From: Minisyncoccota bacterium
Lineage (GTDB): Bacteria; Patescibacteriota; Minisyncoccia; JBAYJV01
NCBI GenBank assembly: GCA_041664925.1
Contig: JBAYJV010000002.1
Span: forward strand, 8,302 to 72,301
Reading direction: 5' to 3'
DNA: 64,000 bases
The notes beneath the pieces were generated by a model. The model was not told where the DNA came from. It was given only the letters and a program-made list of their open reading frames with translations, and made no database searches. The translations under genes were made by a program, and so were the position numbers. Positions 9,435 to 59,859 of this stretch are shown here, in pieces (position 1 is the first letter of the stretch; every line of letters starts with the position of its first letter).

Positions 9435-9479
9435 CTTGGATCGCCCCGGCAGAACAGTCTGTCGGGGTCTTTTTTTATA

Positions 9480-9730
9480 TTATAATTCTATGGCTCACAC
9501 TCGGAATTTAGAAGCTAGAAGTTGGAATTATGAAAAATCTCAAATAACAAATTTCAAATATCAAATCAAATCCAAATGATTTAATGATAAATAGGAATTA
9601 AGGACAATTTCAAACGAATTCGATGGCCATCCTACGTTAAAACTTCGGAATGGCAAGCTCACATCTTATGGCTCACGCTATGGCTCATTTCTTCCATTTG
9701 AGCCATAGACTCTATGGCTCATTTCGGCTT
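9480..9730. repeat. Iteron-like cluster of TATGGCTCA repeats (5 direct + 1 inverted copy) in a 360-bp intergenic region
   Basis: TCTATGGCTCACACTCGG (9487); CTTATGGCTCACGCTATGGCTCATTTCTTCCATTTGAGCCATAGACTCTATGGCTCATTTCGG (9664-9727). Confidence 0.5.
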
Positions 9731-9802
9731 ATCGTCAGGCGGGCCGGCTTGAAATATAGGCAGAATTTTGCGGATATTTATAGAAAATGATAAAATGGCA
9801 AC

Positions 9803-33256: not shown

Positions 33257-33465
33257 AATGGTAAGCGGTCACTAAAGAATAGTGACCGCATTTATAATCC
33301 TTGCTTTTTCTTATAAATGTGTTAATATGGGGACCTAGAATAGTTCTTTAACTTAATGTAGTCCTACGGTCACGAATAAAGTCCTCCTTCACTAAAGTTA
33401 CGGCGGGACGTAAGAATCTTCATTTCTCGTAAACTCGAAAGAATCTTCTAACGGAGGTGGGAAAA

Positions 33466-43683: not shown

Positions 43684-43917
43684 ATGCGCCAAGTAATAAG
43701 TTTATCTTTTGCAGAAAATGTCGCCAAAGAGGTTAAAACCCTTTCTAGAAAAAGAGGATATTTTTCTGTTAGTAAATATATTCAAGGATTAGTAGAGATG
43801 GACAAGGAAATCATTTCTGAACAGGAGTTGTTAAGTTCAATTAAACAGTCAAGACAGGAATACAAAAAGGGCAAAGCGATTACTGCTAAATCAATGGCAG
43901 AACTATATGATAATTAA
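43684..43917 (+). CDS. Putative antitoxin of RelE/ParE-type TA pair
   Basis: Small ORF (MRQVISLSF...) overlapping the toxin gene start by 11 nt. Start chosen at the internal ATG. Confidence 0.45.
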   Translation: MRQVISLSFAENVAKEVKTLSRKRGYFSVSKYIQGLVEMDKEIISEQELLSSIKQSRQEYKKGKAITAKSMAELYDN

Positions 43918-44179
43918 GGCTATTTATTATTCTAAAAAATTTCAGCAAGAATTAAAGAAACTGCCAAAAGAAATTGTTAATTTAGCAATTAAAAAAGAAT
44001 CGTTGTTCAGAAAGAACCCACTACACACTTCTTTGCGCCTTCACGAATTACATGTAAAGTTTCAAGGCATTTGGTCTATATCTATAACGGGAAATTATAG
44101 AATCATCTTTGAGAGGATGACTAATGGCGATATCCTGTTCATCTCTATCGGCAAGCACGATATTTATAGATATTTATAA
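43907..44179 (+). CDS. RelE/ParE-family type II toxin
   Basis: 90 aa with ...LHELHVKFQGIWSISITGNYRIIFERMTNGDILFISIGKHDIY, the characteristic RelE/ParE C-terminal pattern. Confidence 0.7.
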   Translation: MIIKAIYYSKKFQQELKKLPKEIVNLAIKKESLFRKNPLHTSLRLHELHVKFQGIWSISITGNYRIIFERMTNGDILFISIGKHDIYRYL

Positions 44180-44249: not shown

Positions 44250-45143
44250 TTATTCCCTTTCCCTTCTTTTTTGCCAAAGAAGAATTAAAAGAAGAATAAG
44301 AAGTAAGATAAAGAAAAGGAGAATAAGAAAAAACCTTGTTTCGTTACTATTGTCGACGAGATCCTTCATTTCATTCAGGATGACAGGTGGCAAGATAGAA
44401 AATAAATTGGACTGAAGGGGAAGGGGAGACAAGGAATGCAGAGGAGATATGGGATATATAGGAATAGTGGAAGATGAGGACGAGGGATAATACAAAGGAG
44501 ACAGAGAAGATGTGGGAGATAAGGGGGATACAGGAATAATACTTTCTGTCTGTATTATATTTTCCGGTTGAGAACTTGTAGAGTTCTCATTTTTTGTATT
44601 ATTTTCTGGTGAATTCATTGGCGAATCTTCTTTATTTGGCGAACTATTATAAATTCCTGGCAAAACAACAGATCCGAAAGTTTCATGACTGTCGCCAATC
44701 TGAGTGACATTAATTTTAAAATCAGCCCCAAGAGATCCTGCTTGAAATTCATTTCCAGAGTTTTGGAGAAAAACTATTTCAAGGGAAATGTTTTTACTTG
44801 AGTTTCGCGGAATATTGGCAACAAAAATACCTTCTTTAAATAATTCTGAAAGCGAAATCGGTTTGTCTTTATCAAAAGACAAGAGAAGAACTGAAGCGAG
44901 ATTCTTTTTTTCAGAAATTTTATTGGCTCCCAAATAGACACTAATATCAAAATTTTCGTGGTTATCAATGGTAATTTCTTTAGTTTCGCTTTTCCCCGGG
45001 ATTAAATTATTTAGATTAAAAGGCAGGCTGCCAAAATCAATAAAAATCTGCTTATCGCCAAATTGTTCTGTTTTGGCAAAAAACAAAGACGGAATTAAGA
45101 GGAAAGCAATGATTAAATATTTTAGCAATTTAATTTTGGTCAT
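44250..45143 (-). CDS. Secreted protein with Pro/Ser-rich linker and C-terminal TM anchor; part of TasA/SipW locus
   Basis: N-terminal signal. C-terminal ILLFFILLLILLLILLWQKRRERE. The linker is SPLSPTSSLSPLYYPSSSSS... Confidence 0.5.
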   Translation of the reverse strand: MTKIKLLKYLIIAFLLIPSLFFAKTEQFGDKQIFIDFGSLPFNLNNLIPGKSETKEITIDNHENFDISVYLGANKISEKKNLASVLLLSFDKDKPISLSELFKEGIFVANIPRNSSKNISLEIVFLQNSGNEFQAGSLGADFKINVTQIGDSHETFGSVVLPGIYNSSPNKEDSPMNSPENNTKNENSTSSQPENIIQTESIIPVSPLSPTSSLSPLYYPSSSSSTIPIYPISPLHSLSPLPLQSNLFSILPPVILNEMKDLVDNSNETRFFLILLFFILLLILLLILLWQKRRERE

Positions 45144-46182
45144 TATTTAATTTATTAACGCTTCCCATCGTGGGGGCGGGATCGTACCAAGCGCCAGTTC
45201 CATCAGGAATTCGGGCATACGATTTATTTTCTGGCACCGCAAGAACAGTATTACATGTCGAGGAAGTTGTCAGGGAATTGGTTTGTTGAGGAGTGGGGGA
45301 TAGTTCACAATTTGTGCCGTGGTAACTATAAGAATCAATTAAGGTATTGGCATTATCGTATAAATAAACAATGTCGGCAGGAGTGCTGCTGCCAGAAGTA
45401 TTGTTTAAAACAGAATGATTTAAATAAACAACCAACCAATCTTTGGCGCCAACAATTGTTGTAGCGGGCAAAGTATTGGTTGCGGTGATAGCGATAGCAT
45501 GATCGGTTTCGTCGTTGATGTGCCAGCCAGCAACATCAATTGGCTGGTCACTAGTATTATAAAGCTCAACCCATTCCCCCTCGGGCATAACGAGAGAGTC
45601 GGATCCGATGGGATTGGGCAGGAATTCATTAAGAAAAACGCCGGATCTCCAAGTTCCCGAAGAAAGCGTTAACTCTAGCTCTCTATTTTTATAGAAGCCC
45701 TGAGAATTGTTTTCTAAGTTTAATTGCCAAGCCTCAAACAATAATTTAAAGCTGCAAGATTTTTGAAAAAGGGATTCGTCTTGGGAAGCAAGAGAAAATT
45801 CAAAAGACCAGTCTTTAAAAGTTTGAGTACTGGAAGCTTGATAGGAAAAACCAGAAAGCAAATCTTGTTCTTTAAAGTCGCCACCAAGATTCGCCTTGAT
45901 ATTTAAATAATCACAAAGTTCTCCTGATAAATCAGAAGTTTTTATTTGATATTGAAAATCTAAACTGCCCTCTTTTTCAACAACTAAATCAAGGTGTCCT
46001 GATTGCGAGGGCGTGATGCTGGATAGCGAAGAAGTGGCGATTTGGTCTAAAGAAAAATCCAAGGTTCCCACCTCAAAACCATTCGCTTGCTTTGTTTCTT
46101 CATCGGTAAAAAAGGCAAAAGAAAAGTTAGTAAAAAATATAACAACTATCAATATTAAAAGGTAACTGAAATATTTAGACAT
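45130..46182 (-). CDS. SipW-cognate-signal protein with Lamin-Tail Domain (LTD)
   Basis: N-terminal ...FAFFTDEETKQANGFEVGTLDFSL (SipW-cognate class signal). LTD signature LNEFLPNPIGSDSLVMPEGEWVELYNTSDQPIDVAGWHI. Confidence 0.6.
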   Translation of the reverse strand: MSKYFSYLLILIVVIFFTNFSFAFFTDEETKQANGFEVGTLDFSLDQIATSSLSSITPSQSGHLDLVVEKEGSLDFQYQIKTSDLSGELCDYLNIKANLGGDFKEQDLLSGFSYQASSTQTFKDWSFEFSLASQDESLFQKSCSFKLLFEAWQLNLENNSQGFYKNRELELTLSSGTWRSGVFLNEFLPNPIGSDSLVMPEGEWVELYNTSDQPIDVAGWHINDETDHAIAITATNTLPATTIVGAKDWLVVYLNHSVLNNTSGSSTPADIVYLYDNANTLIDSYSYHGTNCELSPTPQQTNSLTTSSTCNTVLAVPENKSYARIPDGTGAWYDPAPTMGSVNKLNNDQN

Positions 46183-46194
46183 ACTTATATCATC

Positions 46195-46383
46195 GTCATC
46201 CTAAGAACATAGTCATCTTGAGGTCGCCTAAGGCGACCGAAGAGTCTCGGGATTCTTCACGGAGTTTATCCTGAGAAACTCGAAGGGTTCAGAATGACAG
46301 ACGCACACGGGATTCTTCGTGGAATTTATAGTGAGCTTGCCTGTGGTGAGCTTATCGAATCCATCGAACTACTCAGAATGACA
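46195..46383. mobile_element. MITE-like elements (one complete at 46195-46298, one truncated to 46383) between LTD-protein and SipW genes
   Basis: GTCATCCTAAG...TTCAGAATGAC, then ...CTCAGAATGACAC. Interiors share GATTCTTCACGGAGTTTATCCTGAGAAACTCGAAGG with the 47571 copy. Confidence 0.4.
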
Positions 46384-46839
46384 CTTTATTTTTCTAACCT
46401 CACTAAAAATTACTACCAAGCAGGGAATTGACAAGAGAATAATAATTCCAATCGGAGTTCTCGTCAGATTAAAAATATAACCGAGATAAGGGACTGCCAA
46501 AACAACTTTTCCCAAGATTTGATCTTGCCTGATTTTTTTTAAATCAGAACTAGGATTAGCATCGCCTCTGGTGGTATATAAATTTTCATCTTTGTTAAAG
46601 ATGCGATGAGTGATTTTTCTTTGGTGATTTTCCTTTTCAAAAAATGTTATAACATCTCCTATTTTGTATTCTGCCATTCTCAAAATAACAATAATACCTC
46701 CTTGTCTGATAGCGGGCGCCATTGATCCAGAAGTGACCATAAGTATTTTATGAGGAGCGCTGGGTAAAAGCGAAGTCAATAAAAACAAAACCAGCGCTCC
46801 CAAAAACCAATAAAAATACTTTGTCGTTAGTCTTTTCAA
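46369..46839 (-). CDS. sipW: Signal peptidase I, SipW/archaeal-ER type (S26B)
   Basis: TSGSMAPAI (catalytic Ser), RIFNKDENLYTTRGDANPSSD (TKGDNNxxxD signature), VPYLGYI. Confidence 0.75.
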   Translation of the reverse strand: MKRLTTKYFYWFLGALVLFLLTSLLPSAPHKILMVTSGSMAPAIRQGGIIVILRMAEYKIGDVITFFEKENHQRKITHRIFNKDENLYTTRGDANPSSDLKKIRQDQILGKVVLAVPYLGYIFNLTRTPIGIIILLSIPCLVVIFSEVRKIKCHSE

Positions 46840-46851
46840 GATATTTCTAGA

Positions 46852-47472
46852 TTACTTCTGTTTGAAGTCAAAAGTAATCGAGAAACCAGTACTATCGCTT
46901 TGAAAAATATTGCCGCCCAAATGAGCAGGATCAGCTTCCCATTTAACTTTAATATCGGCTGTTTGATCGGCAGAAAGACTGACTTCAGATGACGGTTGAG
47001 AAATTACCCCATTAAGCAAAATTAAACTTTGACTAGAAGAAACAAAGTAAGTTTCTGTTCCATCCAAAACACCATTGCCATCTGTGTCTATCCAAACAGT
47101 CAATTTCAAATAATCATCAAGTTCGCCTTCGCCAGTACCGGGATTTCCGCAAGTTGTGTCTATAAGCGCTTCAGGGGAATTGCAATTGTTTTCTTTATCG
47201 TCAGTTTTATTAATTGTGGCAGCAATAATATCTCCCGTAATTGTCCCAGCGTTTTTTAATCTAATAACGCCGGAATCAAAGTCACCGGGCTTGATATTAG
47301 TAACTTGAATAGGCAAGGTTGTGTTTGGTCCATCTGTTGTCAAATCCAAAGTACCGGCAGCGAAAACATTTGTCGGAGAAGTTTCGGTATCGGTAAAGTA
47401 AGCGCCAGTTGCGCCTAAAACGACGCCAACAATAATAGCGATGAAAGAAAAGGCATTAATAATTTTTTTCAT
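46852..47472 (-). CDS. TasA/camelysin (M73)-like fiber protein with SipW-cognate signal peptide
   Basis: ...GATGAYFTDTETSPTNVFAAGTLDL closely matches the TasA/CalY N-terminus (AAFNDIKSKDATFASGTLDL). Size is 206 aa. Confidence 0.7.
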   Translation of the reverse strand: MKKIINAFSFIAIIVGVVLGATGAYFTDTETSPTNVFAAGTLDLTTDGPNTTLPIQVTNIKPGDFDSGVIRLKNAGTITGDIIAATINKTDDKENNCNSPEALIDTTCGNPGTGEGELDDYLKLTVWIDTDGNGVLDGTETYFVSSSQSLILLNGVISQPSSEVSLSADQTADIKVKWEADPAHLGGNIFQSDSTGFSITFDFKQK

Positions 47473-48246: not shown

Positions 48247-49287
48247 CTACTGAACGGTTACTTCGTACCGTCCAGTCACCTCCTCTCCGTTAAGAGAGGC
48301 GGTAACCGTCCATGTTCCGGAGTGGAAGAACTTGACCTTGATGTATTGGCCAAAATCTCCCCACACCTTCACGATCTCGAAGTCATCGCCGAGAACCGGC
48401 GACGAATCGCCGCAGCACCAAGCGAAGTCCCAAGAGATCTTCGTCTTGTTGCAGCCACAGCCACAATCTGGCTCCGATGGGCAAGGGACGATACCTTGAA
48501 TTCCGACGCTCTGTTCATCGAAGACATTTCTGCACTGGTCGCATTCATCGAAACACGGCCAGTCGTTGAAGAGAACTGCGATCTCGAATTCATCGTATGC
48601 CGAGACGCATCCTCTCTCCGGTTCCAGACGGTCCAATACGATCGAATCGCATGGGTCATCGCACGGATCGTCGGGACAAGGCGGCGTTGGGTCGCAGCAC
48701 TCCTCAACCTTTAGGGTTGCGGTCTTATATGCGACCGTTCCCGCATCGTCCCGTACCGTCAGGTAAATGGTCTTCGTTCCGGCCGATCCGAATGTGAAAG
48801 TCGTGGACGAGTCGGAACTCACGTGGCCATCACTTGAGGACCATTCATAGGTAATCGGGCGACTGTGTTCGATAACCGCCGATACCCGCGTCGGGATGTT
48901 CTTGCAGACAGGATTGAGGTCGATGTTGATAGACGTAATCCTGACGAACGGCTTCTCTCCGACGGTGATGGTAATCGAGTCGCTTGCCGTCTCGGTGCCA
49001 CACATCCCGCTGTTGGTCACCGTAACCGTTGCAGTGTAGGTGCCAACGTTTTGGTAGACGTGGATTGGGTTCTCTTCGGAACTTGTTCCACCGTCTCCGA
49101 ATGACCATGCGCGCGTCTTATCTGCACAAGTAGTTACGGCACTGAACGCGACCGTCAAGGGCGCGTAGCCGCTGGTTCGATCAGCCGAGACTTCGACTGT
49201 GGGCGGAACTGTCATACATCCGCCCAGACCGAGCGCCAGTACTACGACCAGCGCGCCAAGCAGTACAAACATCCGTCCTCGCTTCAT
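48247..49287 (-). CDS. Lipoprotein with PKD domains and Cys-rich C-terminal domain (GC-rich island)
   Basis: Lipobox LALGLGGC. PKD: GYAPLTVAFSA...WSFGDGGTSSEENPIHVY..GTYTATVTVTN. C-terminal EECCDPTPPCPDDPCDDPCD...CGCGCN...WCCGD. Confidence 0.7.
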   Translation of the reverse strand: MKRGRMFVLLGALVVVLALGLGGCMTVPPTVEVSADRTSGYAPLTVAFSAVTTCADKTRAWSFGDGGTSSEENPIHVYQNVGTYTATVTVTNSGMCGTETASDSITITVGEKPFVRITSINIDLNPVCKNIPTRVSAVIEHSRPITYEWSSSDGHVSSDSSTTFTFGSAGTKTIYLTVRDDAGTVAYKTATLKVEECCDPTPPCPDDPCDDPCDSIVLDRLEPERGCVSAYDEFEIAVLFNDWPCFDECDQCRNVFDEQSVGIQGIVPCPSEPDCGCGCNKTKISWDFAWCCGDSSPVLGDDFEIVKVWGDFGQYIKVKFFHSGTWTVTASLNGEEVTGRYEVTVQ

Positions 49288-49561
49288 TCTGAACCTCCTT
49301 AGGTTCGTATTTGTTTTTTTTGTTTGTGTACATAGGGAATCTTAACTTCCCTTTCTACTATCCATTATAGCATATTAGAACACTAAAGTCAAGGATTTTG
49401 GTGAAATATTTATATTTGTGAACTTAATATGTAAAAAGAAACAATAAATAATATAACTTAAAATTCAAAACTCAAAGCGCAAAACAACAATTTAAAACTT
49501 AAAACTATTTAATTTTTATTAACTATGCAAACAAAAACCCCGTATTGTTTGATACGGGGAA

Positions 49562-50488
49562 TTAGTGATCATTAGTGATTACCCAAAGAACTTTTGGTAA
49601 AACGCTAATCTTGATTGTATTCGTTGGCAATTCAATCGGTTCGCCGTCAACTTGAGCGGAAAGGATGTCATCGTCTTCGTCTTCATCTTCTATAATAATC
49701 TTTATTTCTTTTCCTTCAAATGTGTGTAAACGCGGCAATCTGTCAAGTTTTCCCGTTGTCATTTGAATGACATATTTGAGTCTTTCTTGAAGCGATGGCA
49801 GATCCTCAATTACAAGCAGATTCAAGATGCCATCGGAAATACTGCCCTGAAGATTGATTGGAAAATAAGAACCTTCGCGCTTGCCGTTGTGAACGCCGAC
49901 AAAAAAGGTTTCACCTTCAAAAGCAACTCTACCGTCAATCTCAATTCGCACCTGTCTAATATTGGGATTTTGCAATTCATTAATCATTGGCAGGCCATAG
50001 CGAAGTTCTTTGAAAGGCAATCTTCGAAAGATTGGATGTTTGTGAGCCAAATGATCAATATCTGCATCAATGCCGATACTAAAGACATTCAGGAAGATAA
50101 GCTTATCAACTAGCCCGACATCAGCTTGAATTCTTGCGCCAGACATAAGCGCCTCAAGAGCTTTCTTGGGATTTTGGGGCATTCCAAGAGAAGCAATCGC
50201 AAAATCATTGGATGTGCCAAGCGGCAGAACTCCGAGAGCGACATCTGTACCCATAAGTTCTCGGCCAATGAGATTGACAGTGCCATCGCCGCCACAAGCG
50301 ACAATGATTTTTTCACCTTTTAAAATTGCTTCCTGACAAGCTTTTTGCGCTTCTTCTTGATTATTCGTAATCCTGAAATCAAAGGCGATGCCGCTCTTTT
50401 TAAGCAACGGCAAGATTCTTTTCAAAAATATTTGACAACCAATACTTTGAGATGCGTTTCTATTAATTATAAAGAACATTGAGAACAC
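49562..50488 (-). CDS. Diacylglycerol/lipid kinase catalytic-domain protein (YegS/DgkA-like)
   Basis: ...KIIVACGGDGTVN..., GVLPLGTSNDFA. Conserved leader upstream on minus strand (50489-50556). Confidence 0.65.
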   Translation of the reverse strand: MFSMFFIINRNASQSIGCQIFLKRILPLLKKSGIAFDFRITNNQEEAQKACQEAILKGEKIIVACGGDGTVNLIGRELMGTDVALGVLPLGTSNDFAIASLGMPQNPKKALEALMSGARIQADVGLVDKLIFLNVFSIGIDADIDHLAHKHPIFRRLPFKELRYGLPMINELQNPNIRQVRIEIDGRVAFEGETFFVGVHNGKREGSYFPINLQGSISDGILNLLVIEDLPSLQERLKYVIQMTTGKLDRLPRLHTFEGKEIKIIIEDEDEDDDILSAQVDGEPIELPTNTIKISVLPKVLWVITNDH

Positions 50489-50556
50489 CTCCTTTAGAGT
50501 TTCTTGACGAACGAAGTGAGTACTAGAAAATCTTAAGTCCCGCCGTAGTTCCGGTA
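50489..50556 (-). promoter_or_regulatory. Conserved leader instance f (serves 49562-50488)
   Basis: CTTAAGATTTTCTAGTACTCACTTCGTTCGTCAAGAAACTCTAAAGGAGGTGTTCTCA-ATG, preceded by a GTTCCGGTTTACCGGAAC hairpin. Confidence 0.45.
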
Positions 50557-51174
50557 AACCGGAACAGAGGAGGACAACTTCATTAGCTTATTTAGTCTTG
50601 ACGAGGGCGGACTTTATTTACGACCGTAGGACTACCATCATCTCCACTCATATCTTACTCTTTTGGAGTTTGGTTGCAATGGATAAAACAATTACCCGTC
50701 TACGCTGTCTCCTACGCTAAACCTGCCTGCCCTGACTGCCGTCAGGCAGGCGTCAGGCAGGGCTATGGATGACCGAGGAAAGCTTCGGCAGGGTTATTGA
50801 ATCTGTAAATCTTTCATTATGCTCAAGAACAGAGTCAACCCTGACACCAGAGCAAAGCTCGGTGCAGGGTTTGATTTTCGTTTCCCTTCATAAATTCAGG
50901 GACGAAAATCAATTAAAAAAAGGGACAGAATGAGATTCCTAGGTAAATCTCACCTGTCCCTTGCGCTAGCTAGGCTGCGAAGTTGGCATCACTCTTGCGC
51001 GAGAGCAACGCTTTCCTCGTAGGTTTTGACTGCGGCTCTCTGGAATGAAAGCGCAATCGGACTGAAAGAACTGTGCCATCTCCATACGAGGGAGTTGGCG
51101 GTACTCTACTTTTTCCTGTGCTCTATACGATGGAGCGACAGGGCGACAAACTTACTTGGTTAGACTACCAGATT

Positions 51175-52107
51175 TTACTCCGGGAGGTTGTTGGTTCCGC
51201 GGAAATCAATGAGGTAGCCGACGCTGGTGTGCTGTGGCAACGACGGCCAGTAAGCACCGGTACCAGCCCCAGACTGCAGGTTCAGGGGAACCGTATCAAC
51301 ATAGTTCACGTTATTAGCGAACGTTACCTGATGGGTAATTGATCCGACGACATTATCGGCATCAACTTCCTGATTGTGAGTCGTGTCGGTCGTACCCTTT
51401 GCATTGAAATCCATACCAACCGGGTTGTTCGTGCCTGCTCCGATGTAAGAAGAACCAGAACCGGAAGCGGCGACATCACCCATAAGGGTATTGGAGAGGT
51501 ACTGACAGTAAGACGTCGGCTTAACCATCGTCACAATACCAGCGTCATTCGTTGCCAGAGCGACCTGAGCGGTATGCGTGATGGTCGAACCGGACTGGTT
51601 GAAGAGCACATTCGCGACACCGCCGCCACCAGGGATAATGATCGTAGCATCAAGAGCGCTTTCAACATCGAAGGTGTCGTTCTTGGTGCGGATCGAGACA
51701 TCGTAGTTACCAGCCACGCTGGTGTCGACAAGGAATCCGTTGGTGGGGTTCAATCCGTGCACATCATCGTTCGCGTTGTGTCGGAATCGAATCGCCTGCG
51801 CCTGATTATACCCAGCCGCATCCAGGGTCTGATTATCCAGGTTAAACGTCCCGTAGTAGGGGTTAACCGGAGTAGTCTTTACCTGACTCGTCAGAGTTCC
51901 CTGAGAAATACCGTCAACATTGACGGTCGTCGTTACGGGATTGATGGAGCCAGGGAAGTTGGACGGGCCGACATTTGTGGTAGCGTCGATCTGCATGCTT
52001 CCGCTGTCCATGTACCAAGAATTGGTCACGGTTGCATCCGCAAACGTCGCAACACCCACACCCAACGCCATCACGAGAGCCAGAACACAGATCATTACTC
52101 GCTTCAT
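51175..52107 (-). CDS. Secreted Thr/Asn/Gly-rich protein, unknown function (GC-rich island)
   Basis: Signal peptide MKRVMICVLALVMALGVGVATFA. The 'both strands open' pattern is typical of high-GC coding DNA. Minus strand chosen by signal peptide and SD. Confidence 0.5.
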   Translation of the reverse strand: MKRVMICVLALVMALGVGVATFADATVTNSWYMDSGSMQIDATTNVGPSNFPGSINPVTTTVNVDGISQGTLTSQVKTTPVNPYYGTFNLDNQTLDAAGYNQAQAIRFRHNANDDVHGLNPTNGFLVDTSVAGNYDVSIRTKNDTFDVESALDATIIIPGGGGVANVLFNQSGSTITHTAQVALATNDAGIVTMVKPTSYCQYLSNTLMGDVAASGSGSSYIGAGTNNPVGMDFNAKGTTDTTHNQEVDADNVVGSITHQVTFANNVNYVDTVPLNLQSGAGTGAYWPSLPQHTSVGYLIDFRGTNNLPE

Positions 52108-52305
52108 CGCTTACTCCTTTTGTGATCCGACCTTTTGCCGGATCGGCTTTTTGGTTGGTTTGTTCTTTGCTTCTTTGCTGCTCGCATCTCTACTCAGTCG
52201 ATTTTAAATGGGTCTAATCACCTTGTCTCCTTTCTTCTTGTATGAAGAGAACTTTATCGTCTGAGCATTCTAATCTATTTTTCTTTCTCTGTCAAGAGTT
52301 GTAGA

Positions 52306-53268
52306 TTAGATATTGACGTTGGTTAAGAAAGGAATGTAGGCGACCGCGTAAACACCGTTACCGAACATTCCGCCAACATCAATAATGAAGCCGACGAAGT
52401 CATGATCCGGGTCTTGGTCAGTATTTCCAAACCACCAGTAATTCCAGCGTGCCTGAAAAACTTTAACGGCATCGTCCGGAATTGGCGGTAAGGAGAATCT
52501 GATCGTCGTCGTTTCTCCGGGCTTGAGGGTAATTCTGCCAAGACTATTGCTGTCCTGCCAGAACCATGTTCCCTTATTCCAGTCATCTTTGATATCGGGA
52601 TCATTATAGAAACGACCTTCTGGAACCCAATCGGCCCAGTAAGACAGTCCAGCTGTAACGGTTGCAGGCCCCTTGATCACCTGATTGCCGGTATTCTTGA
52701 GGGTTACGACCAGCTCCATATTCTCAATTTTCCACTCCAGAACCTTCATAGATTTTCTTGGAGATGGATTACTGTCGCGCTCATTAAGCGAAAATCTACC
52801 ATTAAGGTAGAGCCAAACGCTTCCTGAGCAAGGATCAACGCCGCCAATATAAATTGCTTCATCAATATTTCCAGTTCCACTGAAAGACGAACTTAGCGAG
52901 ATCGAGGAAGTCAAAGTAGAATTATTCATAATTCCAAGTTCAATATCAAGCTGTCTTTCAAGGGTCACAGAATCGGATCCAAGAGTTAATTGCTGGCGAA
53001 GATCAAGAGAATAGAGACTAGTAGCTAGAATATTGTCAGTTAAGAGATTATTGGGCGGACATCCGCAATCATTCACATTAGTGAAAATACCTGCGGTTCC
53101 GGTTCCAAAGATTCTCAGGTCAATGAAACCTTGATTTTCGATGCCGAAACTTAACCAAGTTTCTTCGGTGAAAAGATCTGTCGTGTGACTAGCAAAAGCA
53201 GCCACAGAAGAAATCAACACAACCCCCAACAACCCAACCAACAACATCTTCGACGCTCTGTTTCGCAT
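52306..53268 (-). CDS. Secreted protein, unknown function (GC-rich island)
   Basis: Signal peptide ...LLVGLLGVVLISSVAAFA. SD GGAGAGGG upstream. Confidence 0.5.
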   Translation of the reverse strand: MRNRASKMLLVGLLGVVLISSVAAFASHTTDLFTEETWLSFGIENQGFIDLRIFGTGTAGIFTNVNDCGCPPNNLLTDNILATSLYSLDLRQQLTLGSDSVTLERQLDIELGIMNNSTLTSSISLSSSFSGTGNIDEAIYIGGVDPCSGSVWLYLNGRFSLNERDSNPSPRKSMKVLEWKIENMELVVTLKNTGNQVIKGPATVTAGLSYWADWVPEGRFYNDPDIKDDWNKGTWFWQDSNSLGRITLKPGETTTIRFSLPPIPDDAVKVFQARWNYWWFGNTDQDPDHDFVGFIIDVGGMFGNGVYAVAYIPFLTNVNI

Positions 53269-53545
53269 ATCCCTCTCCTTTTTTCTTTTTATGAATGCGT
53301 TTGTAAAAGAACTTTAACATCCTAGCATACAAAAATATAATTGTCAATAGCTGATGATAATTTGATGCGATTAACCCTGAAGTACAATAAATTGACTTCA
53401 GGATTATTGACTGCGTAATCTTCGCTGTTAATGTATTATCCTCCTTCGCCAAGGCTTCGGAAGGATTTTAATTTTGTTTCTCTTTATAAATTCAGAGACG
53501 AAATTAAAAAATAGCCAGTATGCTTTTCATACTGGCTAAACGAGA

Positions 53546-54592
53546 TTACTCAGAAATAGTGTACGTTTTTGTTTCGTAGTTCGTTGCGCCATTGCAGGTG
53601 AGATAAGCCTGAACCGTCAAACTTCCCGTCTGCTCGGGGGTGTAGTATACACAATTGCCGTATTCAATGGTTTCACAACCATCAAGTTCGAAGTGCCATT
53701 CCCAGTCACCGTCGCGGCATCCATTGCAACCACCACACGAATTCTCACAGTCGCATGGCTCAGGATCGCCACAATAATTCTTGGGATCGATGTTGAGTGA
53801 TTTGGCGGCAAGGGCAGCGGCAAGATCCTGACAGCCGTTATGACCGTGGTTGTCAGGTACGCCGCAGAACTCCATCGCGCAGTCAACCTTGTAACAACCG
53901 GAAGCATCAATCGAGATCTCCGGAACACAAGGCCTACAACACTCCTCGATAGTGATTTTCCCTTCAAAGGTATTCGATACGCCTTCGTTATCAGTCAAGG
54001 TGACTCGCACGGTGTAAACGCCAGGGAGGTTATAGTTATAAACAACAGGATTACCCGAAACAGGTTGGCTATCATCGCCAAAGTCCCAGTCGTAGCTTAC
54101 AATGTAATTGCCATCAACCGGATGTGTTGGATCAACCACGAAGAATTCGATCTGATCTTTTGAGGCGCAATAAGGCGGCACTCCATCACAGTCAGAACAT
54201 CCGCCATTGACCTTTCGGTAACTAATCCCCTTAGAGTCCGGTCCAGGATTGGTTGCCTCAATTGACTGGCTGAATGTGTCCACTGATCCATACTTGTCGG
54301 TGATAGTGAGATAGACGACGAAATTGCCGACAGTTGTAAAGGTATGACTGGGTGCTCGCTCATGGCTGGTAATGCCATCGCCAAACTCCCAGTAATACTC
54401 CAGTTCTGCAATCTCGCCATCGTCGGTCACATTCGGCGTGAACTTGACTGTAAGAGGCACTTTGCCTGTCAGGTGATCAACCGTGATTCCGACAATGTTG
54501 GGCTTCTGATTAAAAAGATTGCATCCAGCAATCACCAGAAGCGACAACACTAACACTCCGACTCCGGCTCCTAACCACAATCTCTTTTTCAC
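53546..54592 (-). CDS. Lipoprotein with two PKD domains and Cys-rich C-terminal domain (paralog of 48247-49287)
   Basis: Lipobox LLVIAGC. PKD: VPLTVKFTP...WEFGDG..HTF..GNFVVYLTITD and YDWDFGDD...GVYTVRVTLTDNEG. Shares the EECC and Cys-cluster tail. Confidence 0.7.
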   Translation of the reverse strand: MKKRLWLGAGVGVLVLSLLVIAGCNLFNQKPNIVGITVDHLTGKVPLTVKFTPNVTDDGEIAELEYYWEFGDGITSHERAPSHTFTTVGNFVVYLTITDKYGSVDTFSQSIEATNPGPDSKGISYRKVNGGCSDCDGVPPYCASKDQIEFFVVDPTHPVDGNYIVSYDWDFGDDSQPVSGNPVVYNYNLPGVYTVRVTLTDNEGVSNTFEGKITIEECCRPCVPEISIDASGCYKVDCAMEFCGVPDNHGHNGCQDLAAALAAKSLNIDPKNYCGDPEPCDCENSCGGCNGCRDGDWEWHFELDGCETIEYGNCVYYTPEQTGSLTVQAYLTCNGATNYETKTYTISE

Positions 54593-54604
54593 TTTGTACC
54601 TCCT

Positions 54605-54787
54605 TTAGGTACCTTCTGTTTTTGTTGCTTCTTCTTCTGGAATATACCATTCTATACCAGAAAGATCCATTACGTTAAGAAAAGCACAGATAAATTCTCT
54701 TAAAAGAGAACGAATCTTCAAAATTAAACCAACAAGAACTGTAAAGAAGAGTATCAACAACCACCCCCACCAAGGCATATTTTTCAC
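54605..54787 (-). CDS. Small membrane protein (60 aa)
   Basis: MKNMPWWGWLLILFFTVLVGLIL... with SD and conserved leader (54788-54850). Confidence 0.4.
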   Translation of the reverse strand: MKNMPWWGWLLILFFTVLVGLILKIRSLLREFICAFLNVMDLSGIEWYIPEEEATKTEGT

Positions 54788-54850
54788 CTCTCTTAGAGTT
54801 TTTTCTTGAGTATAACGAAAGTAAAAAACTCTTATATCCTGAGCGAAGTC
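54788..54850 (-). promoter_or_regulatory. Conserved leader instance g (serves 54605-54787)
   Basis: TATAAGAGTTTTTTACTTTCGTTATACTCAAGAAAAAACTCTAAGAGAGGTGAAAAAT-ATG, preceded by GTCCTTCGACTTCGCTCAGGA (as upstream of instance b). Confidence 0.4.
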
Positions 54851-55020
54851 GAAGGACTTATCCTGAGTTTATCGAAGGATTAATTTTTTCAAGTACTACC
54901 TCCCTTGTATCATAATATAAGTGCTGTGTCAAGAGATTTAGCCTTTAATAACAGATTTTAAGGCAAAATCAATTAAAAATGGCACTACTTCTTTGTAGTG
55001 CCAAAAGAACTGAGGAACTT

Positions 55021-55551
55021 TTATTCAGTGATTGCAAACCCAATCATGGTTGGAGAATATATCTTTCCATAAGAAGCCCTAATAACAATGTAAACAATGT
55101 AACTACCTATGTCCAGACTAGTCACATCCATAGAGAGTTGATATTCTTGGTGAGGCGCGTAGAAAGAGAACGGCAGGTATTCATAACCATAGATAGGGGC
55201 AACAGCTTCATTTTCGCCATTATATCTGAAAATGGCAGCATATGGCTCATTGACGGGGCATTCCCCAGTAGCCAAATCAATTACTTTGAAGTTGATGATG
55301 ATAATTTGTTTGGCGCTAGCTGTGTGTCTTACAGCTGGTAACCCGACCTTTGAACCGAGTCTTGCTCCGCCAGAATAGTCATATTGATTGTTGAATTGGA
55401 CTCCAAAAAAAGGTATGCTAATAAACTGACTGCTGGCTGTTGTCGCTGTTCCTGTCGTAGTCCCTGAAAATTCTTTTGCAAATACACTTGGAACGACGGC
55501 AAAACCGATTGTTAACATTAACACCAAGACCGAAACGACCAATCTTTTCAT
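55021..55551 (-). CDS. Secreted protein (176 aa), unknown function
   Basis: Signal peptide MKRLVVSVLVLMLTIGFAVVPSVFA. GGAGGAG SD. Confidence 0.5.
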   Translation of the reverse strand: MKRLVVSVLVLMLTIGFAVVPSVFAKEFSGTTTGTATTASSQFISIPFFGVQFNNQYDYSGGARLGSKVGLPAVRHTASAKQIIIINFKVIDLATGECPVNEPYAAIFRYNGENEAVAPIYGYEYLPFSFYAPHQEYQLSMDVTSLDIGSYIVYIVIRASYGKIYSPTMIGFAITE

Positions 55552-55783
55552 TTCTCCTCCTTCTGGAGACGAACTTGAAACGAAGCCTCAAGCGCTTCAT
55601 TAATCAGAAATTTTGTTCTTTTTGCGGCGATCACCTCCTCTTATATATTTTAAAAGAACTAAACCATAATTTGATTATAACTCGCCACAAAATCTTTTCA
55701 ATGAAGTTACGATCAATTAAAAAAAATCCCCGTACCATACGATACGGGGTTGTTAGAGGTTTTCCTTTCTCTAACCAAACTGC

Positions 55784-55870
55784 TTAGCAACAGCCGCCTC
55801 CGAAGAGAAACACAATCGCTGCGATCGCTGCTAATACTCCAAGAACGAGACTCCAGTTGATGCAGCACAT
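55784..55870 (-). CDS. Candidate 28-aa hydrophobic peptide MCCINWSLVLGVLAAIAAIVFLFGGGCC
   Basis: ATG 8 nt after GAGGAGGTG, and 22 nt downstream of the stop of the preceding Cys-rich secreted protein. Below ORF-track cutoff. CC at both ends. Confidence 0.3.
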   Translation of the reverse strand: MCCINWSLVLGVLAAIAAIVFLFGGGCC

Positions 55871-55892
55871 AGTTCTGCTCACCTCCTCAGAC

Positions 55893-56426
55893 TTAAGGAT
55901 TACAGCAACAGAAACAGCATCGCTGGCAACAATCCTTAGAGAAAAGAGAGAACGACTCAATGGCTACAAACCCGCAACGGGGGTAACCAAGGAAGTTCCA
56001 AGAACCGAGAGTCTCATATTGTCCAGCAATTCCGAAGAGTCGCGTTGTCGACAGAATCAGGGTGACCGTCTGGTACCCCAGATGGAATGTTCCCTGCCCA
56101 TCATTGTATCTTGACGGGACAGGAATAAGGAAGTCGCCGTTTCTTTGGATCTGCCTCCAAGAAATCAGCTGATTTCCATCAAGAATGATATACCAATATG
56201 CCTGTTCGCAGAGACCGAGTCCTCTTACGGTGAGAGTGAAGGTGCCTGTCTCGCAAGGACCTTTCGTGATCGTTGCGTCAAGGCAACTTCTCCAACATCC
56301 CTGATTGGCTTGATCCTGAAGAGTAAAGTCTCCGATCTGGACCGAGCCAGCCCAAGTCACTGCTGTCAGTACGAGTACCAAAGCGAGTGACACCACCAAA
56401 CCTCTTCGCAGTCTTTTCATATGCAT
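55893..56426 (-). CDS. Secreted Cys-rich protein (177 aa) ending ...DCCQRCCFCCCNP
   Basis: Signal peptide MHMKRLRRGLVVSLALVLVLTAVTWA. SD AAGGAGGG. Confidence 0.5.
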   Translation of the reverse strand: MHMKRLRRGLVVSLALVLVLTAVTWAGSVQIGDFTLQDQANQGCWRSCLDATITKGPCETGTFTLTVRGLGLCEQAYWYIILDGNQLISWRQIQRNGDFLIPVPSRYNDGQGTFHLGYQTVTLILSTTRLFGIAGQYETLGSWNFLGYPRCGFVAIESFSLFSKDCCQRCCFCCCNP

Positions 56427-56594
56427 CCCTCCTTAGGATGACCTAACTACCTAAATCCTACCAGATTGTATTGATGATGTCAATATTTTTACCATTTTTC
56501 TTGACAAAAGTAAAAAACAGGAGTATGATGTTGGTAGTTCTATAAAAAGATAGGTCTTGTTTCACTCGGCAAAAAAGCTAACAAAGGAGGAAGC

Positions 56595-57401
56595 ATGAAG
56601 AAAGCGTTAGTAGCTGGACTTGGTTTGTGTATGGTGCTGTTTGCTGTCGCTTGCGTAGGATTTACAGCAGATGGCGCTACTCAAATTGGCGCATCTCTGT
56701 GGTCTGGGCTTGAGGTCGAGAATGCGGGTAATATTGGCGGATATATTGGGGGTCAAGCCAATGTTGTCGTCGCCAATCATTTGGCTTTTGACGCTCAAGT
56801 TGAAGAAACATTCTACAGCACTACTGATCTGTCTGCGATTTTCGGACTAAGAGGCGTTTTTGCCGATTGGTCAATGGGTGTTGGAGGAGGATTTAATGCC
56901 TATGACCTAGAAGGCAATAGTCCATATTGTTTAGGAAAAGCGGATATCTGGGCATCTACTTATGCGCCCGGTTTCTTTGCTAAGCTCTATATTGACGGGA
57001 TTCCGCGTACTGAGTATGGCAAGGTCAGTATTGCTTTAGACTGGCGAAATAAGCCAGTTGGGTTTGCTGGATCATACTTTTTCAGCAATAACCCTGGCGG
57101 AATCTATAATGAAACAAGAGGCGACCTGTCAGCTTCACTCTTCTATCCGTGCAGTATTTGTATAAAGAGCGAATACGACTGTGATTTTCGCCTTTTTGCA
57201 GGAGCGCGCTACGCGAATTTCGATAACCTCAATATTGGCAATCCATATTGGAGTCATACCTACGGGTGGTTGGCAGGATTGCGCTTGATTGCCTTTAATA
57301 TCACGCTTAAAGCTGAATTACAAGGCAATTACAAAACCGATCCTTGGGTGAATAATAACTTTGCGCTCAAGTTTGTCTTGAACAGCAGTATTTCTTTCTA
57401 G
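56595..57401 (+). CDS. Secreted beta-strand-rich protein with C-terminal Phe (outer-membrane-beta-barrel-like)
   Basis: Signal/lipobox-like MKKALVAGLGLCMVLFAVAC. Alternating hydrophobic pattern. Terminal ...NSSISF. AAAGGAGGAAGC SD. Confidence 0.45.
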   Translation: MKKALVAGLGLCMVLFAVACVGFTADGATQIGASLWSGLEVENAGNIGGYIGGQANVVVANHLAFDAQVEETFYSTTDLSAIFGLRGVFADWSMGVGGGFNAYDLEGNSPYCLGKADIWASTYAPGFFAKLYIDGIPRTEYGKVSIALDWRNKPVGFAGSYFFSNNPGGIYNETRGDLSASLFYPCSICIKSEYDCDFRLFAGARYANFDNLNIGNPYWSHTYGWLAGLRLIAFNITLKAELQGNYKTDPWVNNNFALKFVLNSSISF

Positions 57402-57573
57402 AAACACAAAGCGGCTCTCAGTGAGCCGCTCTTTTTTAATTGATTTTCGTCCCTGAAATTATGAAGGGAAACGAAAATCAAACCCTGAGGTCAATTTATT
57501 GTACTTCGGGGTTGATTGTGTTCCTGAGTTTGCCGAGCGGGGTTACTTACCTATTTTTACTATTTTCAAAATC

Positions 57574-58701: not shown

Positions 58702-59859
58702 TTATGTAATCAGACTAACTAAGTAATATCCGCCTAAAATAAGAAGAATTATGCCTTCGATCAGAGTAATCATTTTTGTCGCTTTTCCAGACGACAGCCA
58801 AAGCTTCATTGTAAAGAAAGCAATCAAAAAGACAATAATTTCGTCTAGCAGATACATCACTAAATAAATAGCGATATAAAGGAAGTATTGAAAACCGCCG
58901 ATATTCGCTTGCGCAAGGACACCAGAGAATACCAGAGGGACTGCAGCAGAGCAGGGGAATTCAATGACCGTAACAAGTCCAGCAAAGATAAGGACGCTGC
59001 CAGCAACAAGTAGAATATTTCTAGTATTATTAAAGGTATTTCCTAATTTCTGGGTAAGTTTATTGATAGTCTTATTTTCGTTAGCTTCGCACAAAACTCC
59101 TTGCTTTCTAAATTTAATAAATTGCTTAAAGAAATACCAGGCGCCGACAAAAGAAATTACCACGACTATAATCTGCATCAAAAACATATAAGAAGAAAGC
59201 AACGAAAATAGCTGATACCAAACACCCATCAATGCTCCATAAACAAGAGCTGTCGTTAAAAGAAAAATACTGCCAAAAATCAGCGTTTTTTTGCGTGAAC
59301 GAAAAGCTAAAACCAATCCTAAAATAAAAACCAAGGCTCCCAAAGAACAAACATTGAAACCGTCAAGGAATCCCAAAACAACTGCTAATGCTGGTATGGA
59401 ATATTTTGACGTATCTATGTTGCCTAAAATAGGAAGATTAATTTTATCTTTGTTTATTGGAGGAGTGGTAGTTGCATCATTTAAAATAGCATTTTTTATA
59501 GCTGATTCGATTTTGCTCCCCATGCCTTGATCATTATCAAAGCCGAGAAAAAATTCATCTTGAACAAAAGTTAAAGGCACGAGCCCCAAATATCTTTCTG
59601 CGCTAATTTTATCGAGAAGCGACTTGAGTAATTCTTGTTTTGATTGATCGGTATTTAGATAACGCAAAATTTCAAGGTCTGGGTATTTCACCTCCATTTT
59701 ATCTAAAAACTTCTCTTCGGCAGCGCAATGAGGACAAGTTTTTGAGTAAAAAAAGAAAAGCTGAGTCTTTTCTTTGACCTCTTGAGCCAAAATTGGCTTA
59801 GAAAAAACAAAGCCTAATCCAATAATTAAGAACAGTAAAAAAAATACAATCTTTTTCAT
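58702..59859 (-). CDS. Thioredoxin-fold / CcdA-DsbD-like transmembrane thiol:disulfide oxidoreductase fusion
   Basis: N-terminal signal + thioredoxin CPHC motif (FFFYSKTCPHCAAEEKFL). C-terminal 6-TM domain with the two conserved Cys (FNVCSLGAL, EFPCSAAVP) as in CcdA/DsbD. Confidence 0.7.
   Translation of the reverse strand: MKKIVFFLLFLIIGLGFVFSKPILAQEVKEKTQLFFFYSKTCPHCAAEEKFLDKMEVKYPDLEILRYLNTDQSKQELLKSLLDKISAERYLGLVPLTFVQDEFFLGFDNDQGMGSKIESAIKNAILNDATTTPPINKDKINLPILGNIDTSKYSIPALAVVLGFLDGFNVCSLGALVFILGLVLAFRSRKKTLIFGSIFLLTTALVYGALMGVWYQLFSLLSSYMFLMQIIVVVISFVGAWYFFKQFIKFRKQGVLCEANENKTINKLTQKLGNTFNNTRNILLVAGSVLIFAGLVTVIEFPCSAAVPLVFSGVLAQANIGGFQYFLYIAIYLVMYLLDEIIVFLIAFFTMKLWLSSGKATKMITLIEGIILLILGGYYLVSLIT

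Follow-up and report, generated by a model that had tools for sequence, protein, structure and literature searches.

A syntenic gene cluster of atypical composition in Candidatus Paceibacterota encodes exported cysteine-rich proteins and a predicted beta-barrel

Introduction

How do the ultrasmall bacteria belonging to the candidate phyla radiation (CPR; Patescibacteria) attach to their hosts, and how do they take up nutrients, lipids especially? The question is open, and according to a review the lipid-uptake mechanisms of these bacteria have not been identified (PMC11665869). Here we analysed 64 kb of a Candidatus Paceibacterota metagenome-assembled genome (the window), in which positions 48247-57401 (the island) carry ten genes, mostly for exported proteins. 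A previous sequence-only reading had interpreted the island as a GC-rich, horizontally acquired set of secreted proteins and lipoproteins, with an unexpected outer-membrane beta-barrel. Is the island a foreign insertion or a resident part of the cell envelope? On balance, we favour the second answer: a vertically inherited, lineage-specific cell-envelope cluster of one Candidatus Paceibacterota clade. It would encode a lineage-specific, thiol- or disulfide-dependent surface apparatus, probably for host contact. Three of its elements are unusual: a predicted outer-membrane-type barrel family in a presumed monoderm phylum, a protein with a cysteine tail paired with a micro-protein, and a conserved, novel Cys-rich domain on PKD-domain lipoproteins.

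Gene content of the island

The island genes are genuine ones, which encode exported proteins, are conserved and evolve under purifying selection. Every open reading frame (ORF) described before was found again at its position. An AGGAGG-type Shine-Dalgarno sequence (SD) lies 5-9 nt 5' of each island ORF, one of only 28 codons included, and most genes have their own sigma-70-like promoter and hairpin-T terminator, sited in AT-rich spacers. An N-terminal signal peptide is present in seven of the ten products, and the two lipoproteins, PKD1 and PKD2, have a lipobox. The description of the products as exported and cysteine-rich held, with signal peptides, lipoboxes and Cys clusters all recovered. 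A YegS-type lipid kinase is cytoplasmic (the sole such product of the island), and p57 and the 28-aa peptide each form one transmembrane helix. Elsewhere in the window, the genes make up a small fermentative repertoire (PFOR, acetate kinase, Obg, pyrophosphatase, sigma factors, ABC and MacB transporters), with none for outer-membrane biogenesis.

Conservation and inheritance of the locus

Four independent assemblies, made from different samples, carry the island together with both flanks, and the proteins encoded there are 100% identical (ENA ERZ27249449, 192 kb; JGI 3300037810, 186 kb; Logan SRR6484324; Logan SRR18595301). This excludes a mis-join, which had been named as a point to check.

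Syntenic loci were reached via full-length relatives of PKD1, and further ones via an exhaustive search with the barrel protein p268. The related loci compared with the window are labelled L007, L009, L010, L011, L014-L017 and L021, and those examined sum to about 100 kb. The syntenic locus was seen in L007, L010/L011, L014, L015/L021, L016 and L017, and thereby in at least five other Paceibacterota species. Its core consists of the barrel gene, p177 with the small ORF (smORF) behind it, PKD2 and PKD1. In L007, L010 and L014 (the last on a 768-kb contig), this core lies between a DUF167 gene and a Peptidase_M73/SipW/LTD operon, and the DUF167 side includes two 100-aa genes and a 385-aa thioredoxin-like membrane protein. 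L011 is partial and holds part of the core. In L015/L021, L016 and L017, the barrel gene adjoins DUF167, in L015 together with the other core genes, and the contigs stop short of the Peptidase_M73 flank. L009 has p177-like, smORF and PKD1-like genes elsewhere in context, adjoining glutaredoxin and thioredoxin-like genes. The core is therefore not absent from the relatives' syntenic site, as it would be for an acquired island. What varies between species is the content between the core parts, here p176, p320, p310 and the YegS-type kinase; other species hold different genes at these spots (119, 410, 220, 263 and 251 aa).

Synonymous divergence (dS) from L007 and L010 was 0.69-1.08 for p177, 0.59-0.88 for PKD2 and 0.99-1.37 for PKD1, and 0.35-1.06 for the flanking genes. 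Omega was 0.11-0.22 for these three core genes and 0.03-0.31 for the flanks. Because the core dS overlaps that of the flanks and omega is low, the core has co-diverged with the chromosome under purifying selection. Only p268 was discordant with the flanks (35% identity). No tRNA was found in the window, and neither an integrase or transposase domain nor an island-specific flanking repeat in the island. The proposal of horizontal acquisition was thus not upheld, given the same site in at least five other species, a dS like that of the flanks, the equally high GC content at third codon positions (GC3) in the relatives and the missing integration hallmarks.

Base composition and codon usage

The island has 45.2% G+C, versus 37.4% in the rest of the window. 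Other stretches of 9.2 kb reach at most 39.8% (mean 38.2, standard deviation 0.7); the island stands about 10 standard deviations above any of them. For tetranucleotides, its correlation with the remainder of the window is lowered to 0.62-0.82, and GC3 rises to as much as 0.64, versus a background of about 0.30. By composition alone, the island is as atypical as an acquired one would be. The GC anomaly seen earlier is therefore genuine, at a smaller size than claimed (from ~37% to 45%, rather than from 34% to 50%). Nor is it a regional shift; it sits gene by gene, and the spacers are AT-rich: island coding DNA has 47.3% G+C, island intergenic DNA 38.3%. The highest values are those of PKD1 (G+C 55%, GC3 0.64) and p310 (53%, 0.61), followed by PKD2 (49%, 0.52), p177 (49%, 0.50), p268 (45%, 0.41) and p320 (44%, 0.45). 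The lipid kinase (40% G+C), p176, p57 and all spacers are near background.

In the island, codon choice runs opposite to that of the background for Lys, Gln, Glu, Phe, Tyr, Ile and Leu. The fractions in island versus background genes are 0.76 vs 0.19 for AAG, 0.82 vs 0.23 for CAG, 0.77 vs 0.23 for TTC and 0 vs 0.21 for ATA. In PKD1 (48247-49287), p310 (51175-52107), PKD2 (53546-54592) and p177 (55893-56426), the codons AAG, CAG, GAG, TTC, TAC, ATC and CTG/CTC are favoured, and ATA and TTA are nearly nil. Codon usage for Gly, Ala and Cys equals the background, which argues against a simple GC-rich donor signature. The pattern looks more like avoidance of AT-rich codons than like a foreign GC-rich codon table.

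High GC3 was found in the relatives as well. Across species, it was 0.43-0.64 for PKD1-type genes, 0.45-0.65 for p177-type genes and 0.40-0.53 for barrel genes, compared with 0.17-0.40 for flanking genes. Among orthologues (0.36-0.65 overall), it stays high even between pairs with saturated dS. A transferred gene would have ameliorated over such a distance, and the composition is therefore being maintained. Candidate causes are selection against AT-rich codons and biased gene conversion at a recombining surface locus.

A second GC-rich gene was noted at 8688-9434 (plus strand; 248 aa, 54.5% G+C, GC3 0.63), in a patch of 40-44% G+C (region 6400-10000). Its product lacks a signal peptide and matches nothing in Pfam or PHROGs. 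Gene-wise GC enrichment is thus not unique to the island.

A predicted 14-stranded barrel

The gene p268 (56595-57401, plus strand; NCBI 'hypothetical protein WC242_03100') encodes a Sec-exported protein with a predicted outer-membrane-type beta-barrel. It is followed by a bidirectional terminator hairpin (57408-57432; plus strand 57410-57430, minus strand 57432-57408). An AlphaFold2 model from a 13-sequence alignment had a pLDDT of 86.7 and a pTM of 0.79, with all five models between 84 and 87. In the model, a signal helix (residues 2-21) precedes 14 antiparallel strands with short turns, which form a closed barrel with an even strand number. The signal peptide, identified by rule and inspection, consists of MKK, a hydrophobic core and FTA|DG. 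Each of the 14 strands alternates a hydrophobic and a polar face, with the conserved R86, K115 and R230 on the polar one. The C-terminus (...SSISF) agrees with a beta-signal: 7 of the 13 family members end in F or W, and five more have F or L at the aligned position, followed by an extension of 6-12 residues. The model thus supports the earlier suggestion of an outer-membrane-type barrel, which had cited strand alternation and the C-terminal Phe.

Homologues of p268 are few. It has no Pfam or NCBIfam match and hence no place in a curated outer-membrane-protein family. A word-indexed protein search returned only p268 itself, and a scan of genome contigs returned nothing. Exhaustive HMMER searching of 1.84 billion representatives gave 12 relatives with 27-42% identity; a thirteenth match, P0138 (1101 aa), is a eukaryotic MATH-repeat protein and was rejected as spurious. 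All seven family loci examined adjoin DUF167, six of them in the same syntenic arrangement. TM-scores to solved barrels were only ~0.5, and a BFVD search found weak phage-encoded OMP-like barrels only. In strand number, p268 is predicted to resemble the monomeric, 14-stranded OmpG/FadL barrels. It differs from them in sequence (8-12% identity, no detectable similarity, no shared Pfam or NCBIfam family), in its very short loops, of which one carries a PCxxC...DCD cysteine motif that is conserved, in lacking the N-terminal plug of FadL, and in being encoded in a phylum described as having neither an outer membrane nor BAM, the machinery for beta-barrel assembly.

The p268 protein is 35% identical to the L007 and L010 barrels, whose neighbouring genes are 72-96% identical to those of the window. 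By this comparison, the barrel gene has been swapped for a divergent allele or evolves extremely fast, as would be expected of an exposed surface component. L016 has two tandem barrel paralogues (133-954 and 1058-1885; 273 and 275 aa) adjoining the DUF167 gene. The C-terminus of one of them, ...GLGLMSGCCE, gives a barrel protein a Cys-Cys tail.

According to the literature, Patescibacteria are monoderm (PMC11665869; PMC12102498) and have lost porins (PMC11665869; PMC12102498; bioRxiv 10.1101/2021.05.31.446380); descriptions of the envelope architecture cover only a few CPR organisms (PMC8871954). No report of such barrels in CPR was found in the literature searched. No gene of the BamA/Omp85, Lpt, Lol, TolC or OmpM type was found in the 64-kb window or the ~100 kb of related loci.

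p177 and a 28-residue membrane micro-protein

Divergent from p268 lies p177 (55893-56420, within the ORF 55893-56426, minus strand), an exported, beta-rich protein with a signal peptide, 12 Cys and a poly-Cys tail, DCCQRCCFCCCNP. The intergenic region (56427-56594) holds a minus-strand promoter, TTGACA-17-TAGGAT (56483-56455), back-to-back with a plus-strand TTGACA-17-TATGAT (56501-56529). A sub-threshold Rfam match to RT-17 RNA also falls in this region (56490-56584, plus strand; 27.7 bits, gathering score 40.4, E 0.066, over the full model) and is probably due to chance; no Rfam family reached its gathering threshold in the window.

The p177 tail follows the pattern CCxxCCxCCCNP at the very C-terminal end. 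Poly-Cys tails are kept in its relatives (CCQTCCFCCCNP, CCQPCCFPCCNP, CCFCCCCNH, CCQSCCCCMGCCCP and RCCCCHCP). These relatives amount to four clusters among 5.8 billion proteins, plus proteins of 29-40% identity in L014 and L015. Omega of p177 was 0.11-0.18. A PDB sequence search with the p177 profile found nothing credible, a metagenome scan with the p177 alignment found loci of already known species only, and an AlphaFold2 model from four sequences was unusable (pLDDT 47).

The second gene of the p177 operon is the smORF (55784-55870, minus strand), which starts 22 nt past the p177 stop codon behind its own SD, GAGGAGGTG. This 28-codon ORF had been proposed before, and its conservation in six species bears it out. 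The encoded sequences are MCCINWSLVLGVLAAIAAIVFLFGGGCC (this window), MCCATIDWGIVLGVLAAIAAIALLFGGGC, MWPCCGVDWVLVLLVLAAVVVVAAIAGGGFCCY, MCCVNWLLLLLGVAGALAAIGLVALISICW, MCCIPSWLVLLVVALGFLVYCASQCCCC and MLCCVPDWLILAIVAAVLLIVAAASCGGCC. All have 28-33 codons and share an M-(x)-CC-x2-3-W start, a transmembrane stretch and a C-terminal Cys cluster. The operon ends in an intrinsic terminator (55728-55749, minus strand) with a 9-bp stem (6 G-C pairs) and a T8 run, and an equivalent hairpin lies 3' of the smORF in L007, L009, L010, L014 and L015. The ratio of nonsynonymous to synonymous differences (pN/pS), computed over 15 species pairs, was 0.27-0.73 and below 1 in every pair. Because the smORF is kept in six species, has its own SD and terminator, and has a pN/pS below 1, it is a real gene for a predicted single-pass membrane micro-protein.

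A peptide maturation module had been offered as one possible function. A ribosomally synthesised and post-translationally modified peptide (RiPP) would be expected to have a modifying enzyme and a protease or exporter beside the short ORF, and no such domain was found in the island proteins; the nearest radical-SAM gene (19143-20165) is 35 kb away. Across the six species, the micro-protein consists of CC-x-W, about 20 hydrophobic residues and a Cys cluster, that is, essentially one transmembrane helix, with no leader-core organisation. The suggestion therefore found no support.

Juxtamembrane poly-Cys strings occur in S-acylated eukaryotic and viral membrane proteins, and CC, CxC and CxxC motifs in metallothionein-like tails. 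The CCxxCCxCCC terminus of p177 and the Cys clusters abutting the transmembrane helix of the micro-protein are reminiscent of both; the difference is that the proteins here are bacterial and either Sec-exported or tiny. The locus has neither an acyltransferase gene nor one for metal handling.

Lipoproteins with PKD domains and a Cys-rich head

PKD1 (48247-49287, minus strand; lipobox LGGC, 19 Cys) and PKD2 (53546-54592, minus strand; lipobox IAGC, 20 Cys) are lipoproteins with two PKD domains, an 'EECC' linker and a Cys-rich C-terminal domain. The PKD domains noted earlier are backed by Pfam matches above threshold (PKD1: PKD_4 4e-22, PKD 2e-17; PKD2: PKD_4 1e-26), with PKD_4 scores of 78.4 and 93.2 bits against a cut-off of 27. 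Both proteins fit the G+LPPv2 lipobox pattern, and their Cys clusters were found as quoted. They had also been called paralogues. Both are indeed PKD lipoproteins, but their identity is only ~25% and limited to the PKD region.

Orthologues of PKD1 are 41-72% identical (10 sequences), and omega versus L007 and L010 was 0.15-0.21. Not counting the lipobox Cys, eight cysteines are invariant across the 10 family sequences (C128, C197, C204, C209, C245, C249, C277 and C292), seven of them in the C-terminal region. This Cys-rich region of ~150 residues after EECC has no family match, and a PDB sequence search with the PKD1 C-terminal domain found nothing credible. PKD1 has a promoter-like site at 49392-49364 and a terminator-like hairpin at 48232-48206. 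For PKD2, orthologues are 74-80% identical in L007 and L010 and 32% in L014, with an omega of 0.20-0.22. A weak match of PKD2 to the CPR pilus protein PamR (NCBIfam; E 2e-4, 20 bits, cut-off 300) comes from the Ig-like fold that both share and was not taken as membership. Like known PKD surface lipoproteins and adhesins (PF18911/PF00801), PKD1 and PKD2 carry two tandem PKD Ig-like domains behind a lipobox. Unlike them, they add the EECC linker and the ~150-residue domain, with at least seven invariant Cys and no family or structure match.

Twelve nucleotides upstream of PKD2 lies p57 (54605-54778, minus strand), a single-pass membrane protein (MPWWGW...). With tblastn, it was found at 53-63% identity in L007, L010 and L011, immediately 5' of the PKD2 orthologue (omega ~0.65). 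The p57-PKD2 pairing is kept in L007 and L010.

Species-variable genes, spacers and repeat modules

The YegS/BmrU-type lipid (diacylglycerol) kinase is encoded at 49562-50479 on the minus strand (DAGK_cat 7e-28, YegS_C 7e-16). Its assignment is supported by PF00781 (97.2 bits), PF19279 (58.8 bits) and TIGR00147 (119.9 against a cut-off of 118.65), and SD spacing favours the ATG at 50479 as the start. The gene is found at this site only in the window species and in L010/L011, with 88% identity in L010.

Two orphans are species-specific. The exported, Gly/Asn/Thr-rich p310 (51175-52107, minus strand; signal peptide and SD) has no Pfam, NCBIfam, PHROG or PDB match and no relative in the related loci or in genome-contig and viral-contig scans; a 263-aa protein of L014 was compared with it and shows no similarity. 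The exported p176 (55021-55551, minus strand; signal peptide and SD) has a promoter-like site (55701-55674) and a terminator-like hairpin (55003-54980) of its own. It has no homologue in Pfam, NCBIfam, PHROGs or the related loci, and a 220-aa protein of L014 is not similar to it. The exported p320 (52306-53268, minus strand; signal peptide) is 25% identical over 184 aa to a 296-aa protein of the L014 island (E 3e-6). It has no Pfam, NCBIfam or PHROG match, and a PDB sequence search gave nothing credible. WD40 matches from PDB sequence searches were rejected, being summed over repeats with no significant single stretch. In PHROGs, the PKD domains had a generic Ig-like 'Hoc' match, and nothing else was found.

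A 686-bp noncoding spacer (50489-51174) consists of a patchwork of window-wide repeat modules and a conserved leader 5' of the kinase gene. It contains no ORF with a homologue and no Rfam match. Ninety-five nucleotides match the region 5' of the L010 kinase gene at 86%, and other pieces recur at 7.5, 24.2, 31.0, 33.4, 48.0, 53.5 and 57.4 kb. A 600-bp stretch of nested palindromes had been described here (50560-51175). The noncoding spacer was recovered, the palindromes barely, with one perfect hairpin of 11 bp. A ~60-nt module that ends in the kinase SD (50489-50545) is met again 5' of the barrel genes of L007 and L017, in the manner of a portable leader or promoter cassette.

The repeat modules are short (20-60 nt), partly palindromic and scattered through the intergenic DNA of the window, at ~7.5, 18.6, 24.1-24.3, 25.1, 31.0, 33.4, 34.6-35.2, 46.2-48.2, 50.5-51.0, 53.3-53.5, 54.8 and 57.4-57.5 kb. 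They also occur in L007, L010, L015 and L017. Flanking clusters of these modules had been taken as the borders of the island. That was rejected, since the same modules lie in intergenic DNA all over the window.

Neighbouring genes

A 385-aa protein encoded at 58702-59859 (minus strand) combines a signal peptide with a thioredoxin/glutaredoxin-like domain (CPHC) and a membrane domain that is polytopic. Matches to glutaredoxin and thioredoxin at residues 25-110 are weak, and no Pfam family reaches threshold. The gene lies beside the locus also in L007 (86% identical) and L014 (60%). The product is a candidate thiol-disulfide oxidoreductase for the Cys-rich proteins of the island. By eye, FNVC and FPC motifs that resemble CcdA/DsbD were seen in its membrane domain.

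On the other side, a putative fibre or matrix operon (44250-47472, minus strand) is conserved beside the island in all relatives. It encodes a TasA/camelysin-like Peptidase_M73 protein, a SipW-like signal peptidase I, a lamin-tail-domain (LTD) protein and a 297-aa protein. As in SipW-TasA/camelysin operons, an archaeal-type signal peptidase I/SipW is combined with a Peptidase_M73/TasA-like protein that has a SipW-type signal peptide, here together with the LTD protein. The resemblance concerns the flank and not the island; these genes have background composition, and their functional link to the island is positional only.

The fibre operon is bordered by a putative toxin-antitoxin pair, made up of a weak YafQ-type toxin gene and an adjacent small gene (~43907-44179, mapped from L001 15109-15381). 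YafQ-type toxins cut at AAA codons, and the avoidance of AAA codons in the island genes nearby may be a coincidence. Further away, an exported 1401-aa VWA/SdrD_B protein with Cys-rich acidic repeats (TIGR02232/DUF4215) is encoded at 38676-42881 (plus strand); it is another Cys-rich surface protein near the locus, and its composition is close to background. A stretch of 4 kb holds three sigma-70-family paralogues (30129-31028, minus; 32267-33256, plus; 33457-34320, plus).

Proposed mechanism

The conserved core comprises three parts, each with its own promoter and terminator. One is the Sec-exported, 14-stranded porin-like barrel (p268). Divergent from it is the bicistronic unit of p177 and the 28-33-residue single-pass peptide, with Cys clusters at both ends. 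The third comprises the two lipid-anchored PKD-PKD proteins with a conserved Cys-rich head, one of them preceded by the 57-residue membrane protein. In the envelope-cluster interpretation, the locus always lies between the DUF167 gene, with the thioredoxin-membrane fusion gene nearby, and the SipW/TasA-like fibre operon.

We tentatively propose that the exported proteins form a disulfide- or thiol-stabilised surface assembly, by which the cell contacts a host or substrate. In it, the lipoproteins would project Ig-like PKD stalks with Cys-knotted heads. The Cys tail of p177, bonded to the outward Cys cluster of the micro-protein, would act as a membrane tether, and Cys at both ends of the micro-protein would permit such a tether in either topology. 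The barrel may form a channel, not in the cytoplasmic membrane of the cell itself but in another membrane, most plausibly the outer membrane of a host. As a whole, this mechanism of assembly, tether and barrel in a foreign membrane is possible rather than probable. A surface or host-interaction role, already among the earlier suggestions, is kept as the best functional guess; the observations behind that reading stood in part, and horizontal acquisition and peptide maturation did not.

Several points weigh against the envelope-cluster interpretation and this mechanism. The barrel is a model prediction from 13 sequences only, and since Patescibacteria are described as monoderm (PMC11665869; PMC12102498), no known barrel-insertion machinery is expected. 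The disulfide tether is inferred only from gene adjacency and matching Cys clusters, and the micro-protein has no charged flanks, which makes its topology unpredictable. No family or solved structure matches p177, the smORF product, p310, p320, p176 or the Cys-rich PKD head. The position next to the thioredoxin-like gene and the fibre operon could be a coincidence of synteny, and the interpretation does not account for the conserved high GC3. As alternatives, the Cys strings could serve metal binding or acylation, and the barrel could sit in an outer layer of the cell itself.

Alternative explanations

The rival account of origin is a recent, unameliorated island from a GC-richer donor. The atypical composition (45% vs 37% G+C, GC3 up to 0.64, tetranucleotide correlation down to 0.62) and inverted codon choice speak for it, as do the lack of p310 and p176 in sister species and a barrel that is 35% identical where its neighbours are 72-96% identical. 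In all of atypical G+C, codon usage, tetranucleotides and orphan genes, the island resembles classical genomic islands. It departs from them in being syntenic, in co-diverging with its flanks, in lacking a tRNA, an integrase or an island-specific direct repeat, and in an anomaly that outlasts dS saturation. Moreover, the core occupies the same site in at least five other species with a dS like that of the flanks, the AT-rich spacers are native and carry repeat modules, promoters and terminators that are the genome's own, the Gly, Ala and Cys codons are chosen as in the background, and the searches returned no donor-like homologue for p268 or p310. For the core, the foreign-island account is largely refuted, and we regard it as improbable. 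An assembly chimera of two organisms' DNA, joined at ~47.9 and 57.4 kb, would explain the abrupt composition changes at gene borders. With the same junctions in four independent assemblies and in syntenic loci of other species, and native repeat modules inside the island, it can be practically dismissed. There is also a likeness to diderm bacteria, where hypervariable surface-protein or porin genes occupy fixed chromosomal sites in antigenic-variation or phage-receptor loci. By analogy, the island has fixed flanks, a conserved core, species-specific cassettes and a barrel swapped for a 35%-identical allele; unlike those loci, it has no recombinase, silent cassettes or switching repeats, and its composition is anomalous and conserved.

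The remaining rivals accept a resident locus and concern its products. It is unlikely that p268 is no membrane barrel at all, its alternating pattern being an artefact or belonging to a soluble or S-layer-associated beta structure, and the island a set of fast-evolving secreted proteins. Such doubt is fed by the shallow alignment (13 sequences), TM-scores of ~0.5, the missing Pfam or NCBIfam outer-membrane family and an organism with no known target membrane; it is countered by the pLDDT of 86.7 (84-87 over five models), by strict hydrophobic/polar alternation in 14 of 14 strands and by geometry, because 14-stranded barrels are too wide for a packed hydrophobic core. Quite unlikely, too, is a clade that is not strictly monoderm, with p268 as a porin of its own outer membrane or lipid layer and lipoproteins that face a periplasm or outer layer. 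The conserved, vertically placed barrel family would suit this idea, as would the small number of CPR organisms with a described envelope architecture (PMC8871954). Yet a single barrel family is insufficient to make an outer membrane, none of the BamA/Omp85, Lpt, Lol, TolC or OmpM-type genes was found in the window or the ~100 kb of related loci, and the literature holds Patescibacteria to be monoderm, with porins lost (PMC11665869; PMC12102498; bioRxiv 10.1101/2021.05.31.446380). Finally, p177 and the smORF might be a RiPP precursor with its maturation module, or a small hydrophobic toxin, as a short conserved ORF with terminal Cys pairs adjoining a Cys-rich protein could suggest. The island has no radical-SAM, YcaO, lanthipeptide-type or protease/transporter gene (the nearest radical-SAM gene being 35 kb off), the peptide is almost entirely one hydrophobic helix with no leader/core organisation, and its gene is predicted to share a transcript with that of a signal-peptide protein, while there is no hint of an antisense partner. 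This explanation is very improbable.

Significance

High GC3 and inverted codons persist in this locus at saturated synonymous sites, and an island of atypical composition therefore need not be a recent transfer. Such persistence is a caution for island-calling methods, and it leaves a puzzle, with selection, biased gene conversion or the avoidance of AT-rich codons as possible solutions. In its boldest form, our interpretation would be that a clade of monoderm, host-dependent CPR bacteria exports its own porin-type, 14-stranded barrel without BAM, into the outer membrane of its host or an unseen CPR outer layer, as a conduit for nutrients or lipids, together with a thiol-tethered assembly and with GC-rich codons actively maintained. 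We consider this full combination doubtful. With the p177/micro-protein pair comes a new and testable example of a bacterial micro-protein that is conserved, possibly with thiol-based anchoring. A conserved, exported, porin-like barrel is unexpected in a phylum regarded as having no outer membrane; as predicted here, it would be either a concrete, clonable candidate for a trans-envelope channel or a reason to re-examine the envelope of this clade.

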